From Acinetobacter phage vB_AbaM_14/CRR8, in the sequence record PV611675.1: 64,000 bases of DNA, one strand, 5' to 3'. The notes beneath the pieces were generated by a model. The model was not told where the DNA came from. It did no database searches and saw only the letters and a list, made by a program, of their open reading frames with translations. Positions 14,112-63,861 of this stretch are shown one piece after another (the stretch's first letter is position 1; each line of letters opens with the position of its first letter). Both the position numbers and the translations under genes were made by a program.

Positions 14112-14146
14112 CAAAAAGAAAGGGAGCCTAGTGCTCCCTATTTTTA
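14112..14146. terminator. bidirectional rho-independent terminator
   Basis: Hairpin GGGAGC-ctagt-GCTCCC flanked by A-run upstream and T-run downstream, between convergent genes. Confidence 0.5.
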
Positions 14147-14434
14147 TCTCTTGTATCCAACAAATTCTTTTAAAGCATCCACAAAGAATGGTTGCATAAC
14201 AAGTTGCATACACAAAGCTTCATCGAAAATCTTACCAACGTTGACATCTGTTTCAAATCCAATCTCGTCAAAATGTTGATTGATACGTTTAGCAAAGCTG
14301 TCAATACCTCTTGCACATCCAAATATCATAATTCCTATGTCTTTTGGGTCATGTCTCTCAAGCATAAGCTCTTCAAACTCTTCATAGGTCCAGCCTTCCC
14401 TTGAACCTGTAATTAATAATGCTACATGTTTCAT
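14144..14434 (-). CDS. SLOG/DUF2493-like Rossmann-fold nucleotide-binding protein
   Basis: Motifs VALLITGSR and IFGCARGIDSFA resemble SLOG (DprA/LOG-like) standalone phage proteins; RBS GAGAGGA; TGATG overlap with the upstream - strand gene. Confidence 0.35.
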   Translation of the reverse strand: MKHVALLITGSREGWTYEEFEELMLERHDPKDIGIMIFGCARGIDSFAKRINQHFDEIGFETDVNVGKIFDEALCMQLVMQPFFVDALKEFVGYKR

Positions 14435-15108
14435 CAATAATCCTCTCTAAAATATTTGGCATCATCTTTCATCCGACGATTTCTTTCAAGAATATCTATA
14501 TTTGGAATACGCTTGAAAATATCAGAGAAAGAAGTTTTTGGTTGTTCAACATGGTGTGTATTAGCACTTACTTGCTCCATAGCTGCATCAATAGCAGAGA
14601 AGTAGTCATCTAAATCCGACCCATCATCTTCATCTTCAATTAATGGTTCAACAGGTAATTCTTCTCTTTTACCAACTAAATGTTTTAAAGCATCTGGAAT
14701 ACCTTTGACAACATTAGGTCTTGATTCACCTTGTTTCTCAAATGAATCTTCCATTTGTGTCTTTGGTTTAACAACCTTAGATACTTTCTTAACAACTTCT
14801 TTCACAGCTTTCTTGACAATGTTAAGAAGCTTACAAGCTTTTTCAGTAATTGAATAATGTGTAGTACGGGTATGACCCATGTCATGAGAAATGATAATGA
14901 GACCAAAATCAACTAACTTTTTCTTAGCTCTTTGAATTTGACTCTCAGATAATGAGCCTTCGAAGTCTTCAGACAGTTGTTTATTAGTTCGATACACCTT
15001 ATCCACATTCTTAGTCTCAGACCAGAACTTAATGTGGTTAAGTAAGAGAGCAGCTTGAATACCAACTAAGTTAGCTACTTCTGGATTGTAAGATTTAATA
15101 TACGACAT
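14434..15108 (-). CDS. winged-helix-like DNA-binding protein with acidic C-terminus (candidate regulator/replication initiator)
   Basis: N-terminus (PEVANLVGIQAALLLNHIKFW) resembles replication-initiator/DnaD-like wHTH; Lys-rich middle; acidic tail; GAGGTG RBS; start at the internal Met of the track ORF. Confidence 0.35.
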   Translation of the reverse strand: MSYIKSYNPEVANLVGIQAALLLNHIKFWSETKNVDKVYRTNKQLSEDFEGSLSESQIQRAKKKLVDFGLIIISHDMGHTRTTHYSITEKACKLLNIVKKAVKEVVKKVSKVVKPKTQMEDSFEKQGESRPNVVKGIPDALKHLVGKREELPVEPLIEDEDDGSDLDDYFSAIDAAMEQVSANTHHVEQPKTSFSDIFKRIPNIDILERNRRMKDDAKYFREDY

Positions 15109-15132
15109 GATAACACCTCTTCGATGTAGGCA

Positions 15133-15161
15133 ATCATACACACCTTAAAAACTCAGATCAA
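15133..15161 (-). promoter_or_regulatory. sigma70-like promoter for the - strand gene pair
   Basis: On the - strand: TTGATC, 17 bp, TATGAT, about 20 nt upstream of the RBS of the 15108 gene; AT-rich UP-like tract upstream. Confidence 0.35.
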
Positions 15162-15224
15162 TATTTAATTTTATTTTTAATTTAATTTTATTCTATTAAT
15201 AACATCTGACAGATACGAAGAATG

Positions 15225-15320
15225 GATTTTTCAAAAACGATAAATGGATATTTTGAAACTGAAACATGGAATTTATGATATCGAAATATGCATATTTCAG
15301 TATCGAAAAATGGAAAGGAA
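15225..15320. repeat. iteron-like direct repeats plus 16-bp perfect palindrome in a divergent intergenic region
   Basis: Four copies of A-ATGGA-W-WTT (15230, 15242, 15265, 15311); palindrome GAAATATGCATATTTC (15283-15298) flanked by direct TATCGAAA. Confidence 0.4.
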
Positions 15321-15330
15321 ATAAAAAGAT

Positions 15331-15359
15331 TTGACAACAGAATTTAATATGTGTAGTAT
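15331..15359 (+). promoter_or_regulatory. sigma70-like promoter
   Basis: TTGACA, 17 bp, TAGTAT. Confidence 0.45.
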
Positions 15360-15473
15360 GGATATAAATATATAGTAATTGACAGGACTAAAAAATTATT
15401 GTAGATAGTTATAGTACCACAAAAACGGATTTTGTCAAGTCATTTATTGTTACAGAAATGTAAACAGTAAGGC

Positions 15474-15501
15474 TTGACTATTGTCATTTTTACTGTATAA
15501 T
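15474..15501 (+). promoter_or_regulatory. sigma70-like promoter of the replication operon
   Basis: TTGACT, 16-17 bp, TATAAT, 30 nt upstream of the dCMP deaminase start; inverted repeat ACTATT/AATAGT spans the spacer. Confidence 0.5.
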
Positions 15502-59402: not shown

Positions 59403-59579
59403 ATGGGATCATTCTGGGGTGATAGGTTGATGGCTTTAACGTTTATCATCCTAGTATCTTTTATCATGGCTAAGTGTACAGCTCATGAAGTGGACCAGAA
59501 ACGTAAAGAGGTTTGTGTCATGGGTAAGAAAACGTTTATATATAAGGGTAATGAGTACCGTTGTGGAGGATTTAAATGA
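59403..59579 (+). CDS. small membrane protein
   Basis: 58 aa, one TM helix, ATG after GAGGTG, ATGA overlap downstream; below track cutoff. Confidence 0.3.
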   Translation: MGSFWGDRLMALTFIILVSFIMAKCTAHEVDQKRKEVCVMGKKTFIYKGNEYRCGGFK

Positions 59580-59812
59580 AATTATTTTTAGTGGTAAATG
59601 AGAGAGCTGGTGAATGTATTGGCTTTGATAACTTAGCTGATGCACAACATGCAGCAACAGGTAAAAACTTTAACCTTGAACAACGACAGGGTTGGCACAG
59701 TGTTTTAGGTTCTGAATACCGTGAAAGTATTATTGAGGATGAAGATGAGCAATTCCGTATTGCTGAAGTTGAAATTGATTTGGCTACATTAAAGAATGCA
59801 GAGGATTTCTAG
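59576..59812 (+). CDS. hypothetical acidic protein
   Basis: 78-aa ORF. Confidence 0.3.
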   Translation: MKLFLVVNERAGECIGFDNLADAQHAATGKNFNLEQRQGWHSVLGSEYRESIIEDEDEQFRIAEVEIDLATLKNAEDF

Positions 59813-60190
59813 ATGGAAAGAATACCTAGAGACTGGAAAGAAGCATCGGAACACTTTAGAGCTATAAGTTCTTTTAAACGTGGCACAAATCGAAGCACTA
59901 GAATGCTTTGTCAGGCTCTATTGCATGTGTCAAACAAGTTCTCTGGCAATCGTTCTGTAGTGGTTGCTTTACATGAGGATCACAAGAATCAATTAGAGGG
60001 TAGGGCTAGGGAATTATTCTCTAAAGAGATGCTTAAGAGTATTGGATTCATGACTTACCAGAAGTACAAGGACTCTAATCGAGAAGGTGAAGTTATAGGG
60101 TTAAAATATTTTATCGATCCTGCTTGTCTTGAAGATGAAATTGCTGTACTATTGAAAAAGTGGGAACAGTATGATGACCCAAGAGATTAA
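59813..60190 (+). CDS. hypothetical protein
   Basis: 125-aa ORF. Confidence 0.35.
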   Translation: MERIPRDWKEASEHFRAISSFKRGTNRSTRMLCQALLHVSNKFSGNRSVVVALHEDHKNQLEGRARELFSKEMLKSIGFMTYQKYKDSNREGEVIGLKYFIDPACLEDEIAVLLKKWEQYDDPRD

Positions 60191-60205
60191 TTAACGGAGA
60201 CTATT

Positions 60206-60703
60206 ATGTCACACTTTGGTATAGACCCAAGAGCAGCTAAAGATTTTTGGAGTACTGATCCTCTGAAAGTAAATCAAGAGATGCTTGAGAGTAAGACAAT
60301 GGCACTTTGTGAAAAGTTTTTGCATGACATGTTGCTACATGATGCATACTTTTATGGACTATTTAATGCTGGTCCAGATAGTGAAGAGTACCTGAATGCT
60401 TTTGCAGATATAAAAGGGATTGCACGTAAGTATCCTGTACTCTTCGTAGAGCCAAAGAAGATGACAGATGTTGGAACTATAGGGTTTCCATTAGAACCTA
60501 GCTTAAACGAGCTTACACAGTCAATTAGAGGTGGTATTGCTAAGGATGAGATGTGTGTGGTAGTTGGTAGACCTACAAGTGCATCTGCTATACGTCCTGA
60601 AGTGTTGGAGTTTTATAAGAGTCGTCGTAATAATCCTGTATTGCATGTAGCCCTTGAAGATACTAAACCTTATCTAGTTGAAAGGTACTTAGGAACTTCA
60701 TAA
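60206..60703 (+). CDS. hypothetical protein
   Basis: 165-aa ORF with GGAGAC RBS. Confidence 0.35.
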   Translation: MSHFGIDPRAAKDFWSTDPLKVNQEMLESKTMALCEKFLHDMLLHDAYFYGLFNAGPDSEEYLNAFADIKGIARKYPVLFVEPKKMTDVGTIGFPLEPSLNELTQSIRGGIAKDEMCVVVGRPTSASAIRPEVLEFYKSRRNNPVLHVALEDTKPYLVERYLGTS

Positions 60704-60724
60704 AATAATCTTGGAGATTTTGAA

Positions 60725-60892
60725 ATGAGTTATGACATTCATCGTAAAGCTGCTGCTATTATGTTTGGCATACCAGAGAGTATGGTGACAGACAAGCAAC
60801 GTAAGGTTGGTAAGGCATACAATACAGCTAGACAGTACAAGGCCAGTCATTCCACTGCCATGCATCTAGCATTAAAGGAGAAGGGAGCTTAG
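60725..60892 (+). CDS. hypothetical small protein
   Basis: 55-aa ORF with GGAGA RBS, ends in the terminator. Confidence 0.25.
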   Translation: MSYDIHRKAAAIMFGIPESMVTDKQRKVGKAYNTARQYKASHSTAMHLALKEKGA

Positions 60893-60906
60893 GCTCTCTT
60901 TTTTAT
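60872..60906 (+). terminator. rho-independent terminator (UUAG loop family)
   Basis: AGGGAGC-TTAG-GCTCTCT then T6. Confidence 0.45.
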
Positions 60907-60990
60907 TGTCTAGATATTCCCAGATATATTCAGATATTCCAGCAAAATCAGAAAAAATTTGAAAAGTTTTTGAAAGTTTTTGAAATTTCC
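60905..60990. repeat. short tandem repeats upstream of a promoter
   Basis: CAGATAT(AT)TC twice (60920-60942) and TGAAA(A)GTTTT three times (60958-60988) ending at the -35. Confidence 0.35.
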
Positions 60991-60991
60991 T

Positions 60992-61020
60992 TGACATGTG
61001 TTGTGAGTTGAACTAAAATG
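60992..61020 (+). promoter_or_regulatory. sigma70-like promoter of the ncRNA candidate
   Basis: TTGACA, 17 bp, TAAAAT. Confidence 0.4.
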
Positions 61021-61026
61021 TAATCT

Positions 61027-61250
61027 CTTTATTAAAGGTTACTCCATATTGATTTGAAGATTAACAGGTTTTGCCGAACCTATTGAATAGGAGGATGTTG
61101 TATGTGAGCTTATGTGGTAGATAGGTGTGACACTACGGAAGTTTGATAGACGAAGTGCTATACGATCCCAGCATCTTGATGGAGGTTCATGAAAGTGTCT
61201 AGTGAACTGTGAGAAATTGCCCATGCTTTGTCGTGGGCTTTTTTGTGCCT
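61027..61250 (+). ncRNA. candidate structured non-coding RNA (~220 nt)
   Basis: Bounded by a promoter and a terminator (GCCCA-tgctttgtcg-TGGGC, T6); several internal hairpins (CCTATT-ga-ATAGG; GTTCAT...GTGAAC); no plausible ORF with RBS; less AT-rich than the flanks. Confidence 0.3.
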
Positions 61251-61379
61251 GTCTGTCTGGCCTGAAAAAATTTTTAGAGGGCATGATGACTTTTGAAAAT
61301 TTGAGTGGGATTACAGGAATATCCATTTTTACAACTTGGGTTAAATCTGATCACTTTGGAATTTTAAGAAACTGAAAAG

Positions 61380-61460
61380 TTAGAGATTGTCAATAGGTAT
61401 TAACAAAAAATATTGATTTATTTTTATTGACTTTGATTTTTATTTACTGTATTCGCATGC
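61380..61460. repeat. AT-rich repeat tract followed by a GC-rich island
   Basis: TCAATA...TATTGA inverted repeat, TTGAYTT direct repeats, then GCATGCGCCCGC (61456-61467). Confidence 0.3.
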
Positions 61461-61660
61461 GCCCGCTCTTTATAAACGTGGCGTTATTTCGTTGTGGTTG
61501 TAGTATGAAAGGTATGTAAGAACATTCCAAATGATTATTTAGAACTATAAATTTATCTATTTCATACACTTATAAAATTTATATAAAATTTTCTTGCATT
61601 TATTTTTAGATTGTTTACTATGTGCTTATCGAAACGAAACAAGCCTAGAAAGGTGATGAG

Positions 61661-62260
61661 ATGGAACAAATTACATTAGATTTATTTAGCTTTGAAGAAC
61701 TCTCTAATGAAGCTCAACAAGTGGCAATTGAAGCAGTCCGTAACAGTGAATATTATTTATCTCATGATTGGTATGATTCTACAAAAGAAGATTTTCACCA
61801 AATCTTAAACATTATCGGCTTTTATGATGTTAAGAGTCAATTTTCTGGTTTTAATTCTCAAGGTGATGGGGCGAGTTTTTCAGCTAACTACCGTTATCAA
61901 ACAGAATGTTTAACTAATGTTAAAATCCATGCACCAAATGATAATGAGTTGCATGATATTGTAAGCGGTATCGTTAAGATCATGAGACGTTATTTCTATC
62001 GTCTTGAGTGTGAAATTTACACACAAGGTTATTACTGCCATTCTAACACGATGAATTTTAATTGGTCGTATAATGATAGATATGATTGCAATATTAGTGA
62101 TGAAGACGAAAGTATCTTGAATCAATTGTTCCGAGACTTGGCAGATTGGTATTATGAAAAGCTTAATAAAGAATATGATTACCTTATGAGTGATGAAGGT
62201 ATCACGGGGCATATTATAGCAAATGAGTGCAAATATACAGTTGATGGGAAGGAGTTTTGA
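61661..62260 (+). CDS. hypothetical early protein
   Basis: 199-aa ORF with AAAGGTGATGAG RBS after the long non-coding region. Confidence 0.4.
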   Translation: MEQITLDLFSFEELSNEAQQVAIEAVRNSEYYLSHDWYDSTKEDFHQILNIIGFYDVKSQFSGFNSQGDGASFSANYRYQTECLTNVKIHAPNDNELHDIVSGIVKIMRRYFYRLECEIYTQGYYCHSNTMNFNWSYNDRYDCNISDEDESILNQLFRDLADWYYEKLNKEYDYLMSDEGITGHIIANECKYTVDGKEF

Positions 62261-62262
62261 TT

Positions 62263-62403
62263 ATGAAAACTTACTTAATAACATTTGATGGCGGTTATGC
62301 ATTTATGAATGCAAAAAATAAAAAGACTGCTAAAGAAAAGTTTATTGAAAAGTGTGTTCGTGAAAGTAATTTCACTCCTGAAAATGTTGTGGTAGTTTAT
62401 TAA
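62263..62403 (+). CDS. small hypothetical protein
   Basis: 46-aa ORF, GGAG RBS. Confidence 0.25.
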   Translation: MKTYLITFDGGYAFMNAKNKKTAKEKFIEKCVRESNFTPENVVVVY

Positions 62404-62414
62404 AGGTAAATGAA

Positions 62415-62693
62415 ATGAAAATGTCAACTCAAGAGATTATTGATTTCCTATCTGTAAATCAAAGTGCATGGAAAAAGGTAGCACTAAAAAATATTGAAGA
62501 TATTAGTGCGGTGAATGATGAGCTAGAAGAAAAAGATATCTATACATTGAAACATGATTGTACATTCTATGATGCTTTGAATGACCACAATACACCTTTT
62601 GAAGATGTGTTAAATGATTTCTTTATGTTACATTTAGACATCGAACAAAATAGCAATGATGTGATGATTTGGTTGCAGCGTATTTATGCTTAA
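62415..62693 (+). CDS. hypothetical acidic protein
   Basis: 92-aa ORF. Confidence 0.35.
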   Translation: MKMSTQEIIDFLSVNQSAWKKVALKNIEDISAVNDELEEKDIYTLKHDCTFYDALNDHNTPFEDVLNDFFMLHLDIEQNSNDVMIWLQRIYA

Positions 62694-62705
62694 TGGTGGA
62701 TGAAA

Positions 62706-63035
62706 ATGAGTAAACAGCAATGTATATTTTTTGATGCCTTTTTTAACTTCAAAAAGAAACGTAAAGTTGAAGAGTACACATTAACTATTACTGTGTGGTA
62801 CACTCTTAAAGATCAAATAAGACGTGGTAAATATTGCATCGTCATACATGGCGACAACCCTAGTCGGATGAGTGTAGACGGGGTAAATAAGTTTAAAGAC
62901 TTTATCGACGGCAGAGAGATTACAAAAGGTATTGCTATGTCTAGTGTAAGCTATGACGTGACAAAGTATAGAGGCCATTTGGTGGCAAGTCATGTCAAAG
63001 CACAAAACTTGATTGTAAATGAAAAAGGTAATTGA
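62706..63035 (+). CDS. hypothetical protein
   Basis: ATG after GGTGG. Confidence 0.3.
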   Translation: MSKQQCIFFDAFFNFKKKRKVEEYTLTITVWYTLKDQIRRGKYCIVIHGDNPSRMSVDGVNKFKDFIDGREITKGIAMSSVSYDVTKYRGHLVASHVKAQNLIVNEKGN

Positions 63036-63787: not shown

Positions 63788-63816
63788 GTTGACAAGGATT
63801 TTAAATAGGGCCATAA
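63788..63816 (+). promoter_or_regulatory. sigma70-like promoter
   Basis: TTGACA, 17 bp, CATAAT. Confidence 0.45.
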
Positions 63817-63861
63817 TACCCACATAGACAAACAAACAGCTTAAACAAAAGGTAAAGCGAA

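Follow-up and report, generated by a model that had tools for sequence, protein, structure and literature searches.

The stretch of DNA analysed here (64,000 nucleotides (nt) of Acinetobacter phage vB_AbaM_14/CRR8, sequence record PV611675.1; hereafter the window) contains, between positions 61027 and 61250, a segment delimited by a promoter and a terminator, and the question raised by this locus is what such a unit produces. A previous sequence-only reading had proposed a structured non-coding RNA extending from promoter to terminator, and the core of this proposal was borne out: the promoter hexamers and the terminator are conserved, the base changes include compensatory ones, and no open reading frame (ORF) is conserved as a protein. 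Very probably, the locus is a genuine, hitherto undescribed gene, and its product in Saclayvirus-type phages is a folded non-coding RNA of ~218 bases. Judged from the sequences compared, this RNA is probably early and abundant; the more specific proposal, a stand-alone gene for a ~218-nt non-coding early regulatory RNA, is put forward tentatively, at slightly less than an even chance.

The 781 bases around the element match 20 records of Saclayvirus Acinetobacter phages (86-96% identity), and one stretch of this query matches the more distant phage Acibel004. By these matches, the source phage of the window is a Saclayvirus-type Acinetobacter phage; such phages are myoviruses of ~100 kb with direct terminal repeats (PMC11283397). 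The alignment set consisted of 16 phage records and five Logan/ENA assembly copies found via the flanking proteins; scans of IMG/VR gave two already-known isolates only. An invariant 20-mer gave one chance match each in the metagenome and bacterial-genome scans, and a plasmid collection scanned for the element gave 0 matches. A search of the window and of the early region downstream found no paralogues of the RNA, and the covariance model of its domain (R1) detected a single copy within the window.

Promoter, terminator and start-stop unit

The promoter is the best promoter-like site within 59500-63000. Its hexamers and 17-bp spacer are those named in the sequence-only reading, whose coordinates were one base off (actual position 60991-61019), and the start site is predicted near 61026 ± 2. 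Sites with at least 11 of the 12 consensus bases number 13 in the window, versus ~3.5 expected from a first-order Markov simulation, and 12 of these 13 sigma-70-like sites lie on the + strand, the coding strand of nearly all genes (several are intragenic); the chance expectation of such a site in the surrounding 768-bp gap is ~0.04. The -35 hexamer is unchanged in 22 copies, the spacer has diverged (42-67% identity), and the -10 hexamer is mostly TAAAAT or TATAAT, with G at the first or third position in three records. At the syntenic place Acibel004 carries a perfect consensus (TTGACA-18-TATAAT), annotated as a promoter by its depositors.

The intrinsic terminator reported earlier was recovered as the only terminator-like match of a scan over 59500-63000 (-13 kcal/mol, z = -3.7). 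The segment 61209-61245 is identical in all six pairwise comparisons, and its sole change across the copies is one base of the U-tract in CP14; at this position Acibel004 carries another hairpin, with a C/U-rich tract after it. The G+C content is 39-46% within the unit versus 20-30% in the flanks, in agreement with the lower AT content described previously. On the level of sequence and conservation, a non-coding transcript is bounded here by its own promoter and a Rho-independent terminator.

The 5' half of the unit contains a putative ribosome-loading site. It had been stated that no ORF had a usable ribosome-binding site, the only AGGAGG (61089-94) being followed by an ATG with a stop after 9 codons; this frame is as described, but the properly spaced ATG-TGA at 61102-61107 had been missed. 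The arrangement (A/G)GGAG, exactly 8 variable nt, AUG and an immediate UGA or UAA is present in 22 of the 22 Saclayvirus-type copies (UGA in most, UAA on two different haplotype backgrounds), and the Acibel004 version has three codons (AGGAG-8 nt-AUG AAG UUU UAA). At the sequence level these are the parts of a start-stop or minigene: a Shine-Dalgarno sequence, a spacer within 5-9 nt, a start and an immediate stop. The fixed spacing, the free spacer sequence and the stop-to-stop substitutions together bear the signature of a selected ribosome-binding site making no product. The start-stop lies ~25 nt 5' of the structured domain, and a ribosome parked on it might protect or stabilise the RNA, or influence the folding of the domain.

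Conservation and fold of the 3' domain

The two parts of the RNA evolve at very different rates. The 5' part (61027-61088) exists as several haplotypes that share about 50% identity, which is close to the value for third codon positions of the adjacent gene (0.42-0.47), and the 3' domain (61120-61208) is 90-92% identical across clades, with a terminator at 100%. Between the window and KissB, identity is 0.42 at third codon positions of the upstream gene and 0.51 in the RNA 5' part versus 0.92 in the 3' domain and 1.0 in the terminator. In the assembly contig L029, whose upstream protein is 40% identical to that of the window, the RNA domain still scores 125 bits. The RNA is kept far more strictly than the adjoining protein genes and is the best-conserved element of the neighbourhood; on these comparisons, the 3' domain is under strong purifying selection.

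The domain was proposed by RNAalifold, and the covariance model was built from it. In 18 distinct copies all pairs of its closing helix (helix 3) are kept (100%), and three of the six change on both sides: A-U to U-A in four phages, and C-G to U-A in L029 with a U-G intermediate in L032; in Acibel004 it reads GAAGCU/GGCUUC (CG to AU plus AU to GC). Within the long hairpin, each of the four inner-stem pairs changes on both sides somewhere and pairing remains 100% (for instance, U-A to C-G in L029). In Acibel004 all four inner-stem pairs differ with pairing kept, and the 8-nt loop (61150-57) is largely kept (ACAAAGUG vs ACGAAGUG). The segment AGCAUCUUGAUGGAGGUUCAUGAA is nearly invariant in 19 copies and can form a further helix (helix 6, 61176-82/61187-93) within Saclayvirus; in Acibel004 its sequence is largely kept (CAUCUUGAUCGAGUUCAU), yet three of six helix-6 pairs are broken. 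If not helix 6, this segment is a candidate single-stranded contact site; the conserved unpaired stretches are 61150-57 and 61170-82. The small hairpin in the otherwise free-evolving 5' part shows two double-changed pairs between haplotypes (UA to CG, UA to AU) and is absent in Acibel004.

Covariation across the related phages exceeded that of shuffled alignments. In a structure-blind MAFFT alignment of 16 full-length copies, compared with 500 shuffles and slid controls, 5 pairs and 14 cells changed on both sides and were still paired, values reached by 1 and 0 of the 500 shuffles, respectively, and the slid controls gave 0-1. When Acibel004 was added, in an alignment fitted to the model and hence biased towards it, there were 7 compensatory pairs (0 of 500 shuffles), all of them in helix 3 and the hairpin inner stem. 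The domain model scores 26 bits at the Acibel004 syntenic site (E about 1e-4). Many of the pairs are G-U, which would be C-A mismatches on the opposite strand, indicating a fold that only the + strand can form.

The 3' strand of helix 3 sits in the loop of an alternative hairpin (hairpin X), so that the two folds are mutually exclusive or form a tight pseudoknot; together they would give a strained pseudoknot with a 2-3 nt crossing loop, and the two conformers differ by 0.3-1.9 kcal/mol in three phages. Both arms of hairpin X are kept in Acibel004, with one-sided changes only. The three hairpins named in the sequence-only reading all exist in the window sequence, but none has covariation support and none is the conserved structure: CCTATT/ATAGG and CCA/TGG are not conserved, one haplotype lacking the former and the latter being incompatible with supported helices; and GTTCAT/GTGAAC, which is hairpin X, is conserved but excludes the covariation-supported closing helix.

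Several observations weigh against a free-standing, folded regulatory RNA. The compensatory changes amount to about five independent events only, and helices 6 and 4 show no double changes. The isolated long hairpin does take the same shape in three lineages (window, L029, Acibel004). The folding energy of the whole RNA is at the shuffled level (z = 0.03) and its subdomains fold no better than shuffles, so that stability by itself does not support the fold, and a canonical terminator is missing in Acibel004. RNAduplex comparison with the 136 phage translation-start regions of the window was no better than with shuffles, and no transcriptome of any Saclayvirus-type phage was found in the literature. 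Conservation extends ~55 nt beyond the terminator and resumes at 61366-61660, and functions acting at the DNA level or through read-through may be mixed in.

Table 1 Coordinates of the features in and around the predicted RNA gene (window numbering).
Feature	Position	Strand	Description
Upstream operon terminator	60883..60904	+	GGGAGC-TTAG-GCTCTC plus T6; -13.8 kcal/mol, z = -3.2
Upstream repeats	60912..60987	+	Found with repeat tools
Sigma-70-type promoter	60991..61019	+	TTGACA 60991-60996, 17-bp spacer, TAAAAT 61014-61019; 11/12 consensus
Predicted primary transcript, non-coding, ~218 nt	61026..61244	+	Bounded by promoter and terminator; no conserved ORF
Small 5' hairpin	61067..61080	+	GGUUU-UGCC-GAACC; in the otherwise free-evolving 5' part
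Predicted ribosome-loading start-stop unit	61089..61107	+	AGGAG 61089-93, 8-nt spacer, AUG 61102-04, UGA 61105-07
Conserved core domain closed by helix 3	61129..61199	+	GACACU 61129-34 / AGUGUC 61194-99
Long hairpin	61137..61169	+	Outer stem GGAA/UUCC (window UCCC), internal loop, inner stem 61146-49/61158-61
Conserved segment AGCAUCUUGAUGGAGGUUCAUGAA	61170..61193	+	Nearly invariant in 19 copies
Alternative hairpin X	61185..61207	+	GUUCAU (61185-90) ... (A/G)UGAAC (61202-07)
Intrinsic terminator	61219..61244	+	GCCCAUG/CGUGGGC 61219-61238, 7-bp stem, 6-nt loop, U6 61239-61244
Post-terminator conserved block	61245..61300	+	89-100% identical in six pairwise comparisons; conserved in Acibel004

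What the RNA may do

If the unit is a free-standing RNA gene, host RNA polymerase would transcribe it on entry of the DNA, and a ribosome would park on the start-stop, so that the RNA, itself untranslated, is shielded from or stabilised against RNase E or Rho. The working part would be the conserved 3' domain, in which the candidate contact sites are the closing helix, the long hairpin (with the loop ACGAAGUG) and the stretch CAUCUUGAUGGAGG, also conserved; this domain might bind an RNA or protein partner in trans, of host or phage, thereby reprogramming early infection. A more elaborate version, to which we give a small chance, is a new ribosome-engaging phage riboregulator: a ribosome parked beside a bistable domain (helix 3 vs hairpin X) would either report or manipulate the translation state of the host in the first minutes of infection, or gate read-through into the AT-rich block and the early genes.

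The predicted RNA shares traits with several known systems. Like trans-acting small RNAs (sRNAs) of the Hfq type, it has its own promoter, a length within 50-250 nt, a conserved 3' part and a Rho-independent terminator whose U tail follows an A/U-rich stretch; unlike them, its 5' part is variable and bears a full ribosome-binding site, and no seed-target pair was identified. With riboswitch and attenuator leaders it shares a junction domain, a closing helix whose 3' strand is also used by an alternative hairpin, and an intrinsic terminator thereafter; unlike such leaders, it has no antiterminator that could be found, no adjoining regulated gene and no Rfam match. The bar minigenes of phage lambda are a comparison case of the start-stop type. 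As in these and in the start-stops of E. coli, a spaced Shine-Dalgarno sequence, an AUG and an immediate stop (2-3 codons in Acibel004) are present, a layout which implies ribosome binding without a product. The start-stops documented in E. coli bind ribosomes and lie inside genes (Meydan et al., bioRxiv 10.1101/520783), unlike the present one, which is a fixed part of a free-standing phage non-coding RNA and is conserved across two genera.

Among phage RNAs, ONT-cappable-seq has given short promoter-proximal or 5' untranslated region (UTR) non-coding RNA candidates in virulent Pseudomonas phages (bioRxiv 10.1101/2023.10.13.562163), and phage PAK_P3, whose family is related to Saclayvirus (PMC12846349), makes sRNA1 and sRNA2, late RNAs of about 100-200 nt processed from 3' UTRs with no start site of their own (PMC4933390). 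Like these, the predicted RNA is phage-encoded, shorter than 250 nt, intergenic or in a 5' UTR and genus-conserved, and many RNAs of these types lie, as here, between a promoter and a terminator close to it; no sequence or Rfam relationship links it to them. Unlike the PAK_P3 RNAs, it carries a consensus promoter of its own, together with a start-stop unit and a covariation-supported fold.

Saclayvirus-type phages are under development for therapy against carbapenem-resistant Acinetobacter baumannii, and their early programme is almost wholly unannotated. The RNA, probably among the first and most strongly transcribed products, likely matters for the takeover of the host. Almost no annotation includes it, and in some records its place is covered by spurious antisense proteins. 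The combination of a start-stop with a covariation-supported fold makes it a small test case for the role of ribosome loading on non-coding RNA.

The main rival explanation is a leader from premature termination: most transcripts would stop at 61244, the short RNA being a by-product, and a regulated fraction would read through to the conserved blocks downstream and the early genes, controlled by ribosome loading on the start-stop, by loading on an (A/G)UG frame across the terminator (pyrBI-type) or by the helix 3/hairpin X switch. We regard such a cis-acting leader or attenuator as unlikely, and we favour a free-standing RNA over an attenuator or riboswitch of the classical kind. Short 5' UTR RNAs of this origin are common in virulent Pseudomonas phages (bioRxiv 10.1101/2023.10.13.562163). 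The locus itself has two conserved, mutually exclusive folds of nearly equal energy, conserved sequence just 3' of a terminator that is not canonical in Acibel004, and a frame from 61202 which is open across the terminator in every genome (first codon AUG, GUG or, in Acibel004, UUG). This frame, however, has no good Shine-Dalgarno sequence, and the well-formed one precedes an immediate stop. Inspection of the upstream sequence showed no antiterminator pairing with one or the other arm of the terminator, and in constrained folds the terminator forms alongside either conformer, hairpin X included. An attenuator adjoins its regulated gene without an intervening promoter, whereas here the next start codon is 416 nt from the terminator, and the downstream gene has its own promoter-like site and an early-gene 5' UTR motif, both conserved in Acibel004 and thus across genera, so that the RNA need not be the leader of that gene. 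The 768-bp gap might otherwise be mainly a DNA-level hub (a replication origin or control region), which the transcript activates or primes, as in the promoter-plus-AT-rich origins of T4 (oriF/oriG) and T7. This has a slim chance: only one other gap in the 64 kb exceeds 150 nt, the whole of the present one is conserved above the flanking genes, its conserved AT-rich block with 16-bp tandem repeats (61411-61453) is common to Acibel004, and the TTTGAAA and AGATATTCC repeats could be protein-binding sites; but the compensatory changes, with their G-U pairs and U-G intermediate, point to the RNA level and the + strand, the terminator separates the promoter from the AT-rich block, and neither a GC-skew inflection in the window nor an initiator-type iteron set was identified.

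Conservation without any function of its own, through recent recombination sweeps at a mosaic junction where promoter and terminator merely insulate modules, is very improbable. The region is indeed strongly mosaic (window and KissB have a 100% identical downstream gene and saturated divergence upstream), yet the domain has diverged by 8-10% between clades, which argues for selection rather than a recent sweep, and its 92% identity contrasts with 42-51% at neutral sites; moreover, the changes that occurred are compensatory, and Acibel004, at about 50% identity, still has the same architecture. Hardly probable at all is an mRNA for a very small protein, either a Cys-rich frame of 16-57 amino acids (aa) from 61202 or the antisense 95-aa ORF (61039-61326). 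In all Saclayvirus-type genomes the 61202 frame starts with AUG or GUG and its first 16 residues are preserved, a hydrophobic frame of 31 aa occupies the same place and register in Acibel004, and the antisense ORF is annotated in some records. Nevertheless, on both strands the ORFs of at least 15 codons are interrupted, frameshifted or of different length from genome to genome: frameshifts in the A/T run alter the C-terminus of the 61202 frame, giving lengths of 16 to 57 aa (D22 has a stop at codon 17), an intrinsic terminator lies inside this frame, substitutions read from the alignments are nearly all non-synonymous, and identity to Acibel004 by codon position is flat (12/13/10). The antisense ORF, already doubted in the sequence-only reading, is broken at different places between genomes and would turn the G-U pairs into mismatches.

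Other identities were considered, and most were set aside. Rfam 15 gave no gathering-level match in the whole window; permissive Rfam searches of 60850-61700 and of the Acibel004 region gave chance-level matches only (E at least 0.7). ARAGORN found 0 transfer RNA (tRNA) or transfer-messenger RNA (tmRNA) genes in the window. The earlier suggestion of a packaging or terminal element falls with the position of the genome terminus: the 1153-bp terminal repeat of vB_AbaM_P1 is at the ends of its record (107.5 kb), whereas the element occupies 99.5-100.3 kb and so lies ~6 kb upstream of the repeat. For a hammerhead, GAAA and one side of the closing helix fit, but the other strand is CUUGAUGG and not CUGANGA, no proper stem II was seen by inspection, and Rfam gave no hammerhead match at E ≤ 10. 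A CsrA-type GGA sponge was rejected, the four GGA triplets counted by eye being about as many as estimated from base composition. For an RNA anti-CRISPR, a solitary mimic of the host repeat (clustered regularly interspaced short palindromic repeats, CRISPR), the likeness to the presumed I-F repeat of A. baumannii is weak and confined to GUUCAUG ... AGAAA; the element is of another length, lacks a hairpin of the repeat type, and does not retain its 3' part in Acibel004. A lambda-type nut site was rejected, the boxA-like GCTCTTTA (61463-61470) lying 3' of the terminator and not being kept in Acibel004, and a 35-nt inverted repeat flanking the unit was dropped, its right arm lying in a variable segment.

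The surrounding gap and neighbouring genes

The long non-coding gap described previously was recovered at 60893-61660 (768 bp), and its layout is common to Saclayvirus and Acibel004. Its order is: AGATATTCC repeats, phased TTTGAAA repeats, promoter, start-stop unit, AUAGGUG, domain, hairpin with a pyrimidine tail, CTGAAAAA(A)TTTTT..GGCATGATG block, AT-rich block with 16-bp repeats, and a weaker promoter with the early-gene 5' UTR motif before the next gene. On this layout, the RNA looks like its own transcription unit within a densely functional control region. The upstream terminator (60883..60904), read from the sequence and not listed by the simple terminator scan, is predicted to close the preceding operon and to set the RNA unit apart from the upstream genes. 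Further 3', AGATATTCC is present ~3 times (60912-60941), and TTTGAAA(A/G)TTT occurs three times with 10-11 bp phasing directly 5' of the -35 hexamer (60958-60987); both motifs recur in Acibel004 at the equivalent position, and the phased tract looks like an UP element or a bent-DNA tract. In Aci05 only (L001 3447-4013), an HNH endonuclease gene lies between the polymerase-fragment ORF described below and the RNA promoter, taking the place of the AGATATTCC repeat region.

The conserved block just 3' of the terminator holds a near-palindrome, CTGAAAAAATTTTTAG, together with GGCATGATG and a fourth copy of TTTTGAAA, and would be outside the predicted RNA unless there is read-through. The short ORFs starting from its ATGATG differ wholly between haplotypes (10, 30 and 32 aa), indicating that the constraint is not on a protein. 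The second non-coding block (61366-61660) is AT-rich and 91-96% identical between phage clades, and contains the 16-bp tandem repeats and an 89-nt stretch with 79% identity to Acibel004. An origin, another small transcript or a control region are the candidate roles for this block. An early-gene cassette (TTGACA-17-CATAAT, ACCCACATAGAC, AAACAAACAGCTTAAACAAAAGG) was found at 63789-63850 of the window and at 1290-1370 and 4550-4640 of L028; its last part corresponds to the conserved upstream motif AAGCAAACAACTTAAAAGG, which the authors of Acibel004 reported for eight genes.

The ORF 5' of the RNA unit (60725-60892, 55 aa) resembles a fragment of a family A DNA polymerase, matching positions 184-224 of Pfam DNA_pol_A with 23 bits, below the cut-off. 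It adjoins the RNA in all relatives, and its L029 version (76 aa) has a precomputed PF00476 match. Polymerase swaps have been described for this phage clade (PMC11348598), and the ORF may be a remnant of such swaps or a small functional protein. Mosaic breakpoints against the relatives are sharp in 60580-61960: window and KissB share a 100% identical downstream gene of 199 aa, with only 42% identity at third positions of the upstream 55-aa gene, and other phages have a different 477-nt gene 3' of the same invariant leader. The record of UOL-KIMZ-24, an unverified assembly with an arbitrary start, begins inside the element region. The other non-coding gap longer than 150 nt on the + strand (14858-15480), which overlaps minus-strand ORFs at 14144-15141 and ends at TTGACT-16-TATAAT (15474), is probably a divergent control region.

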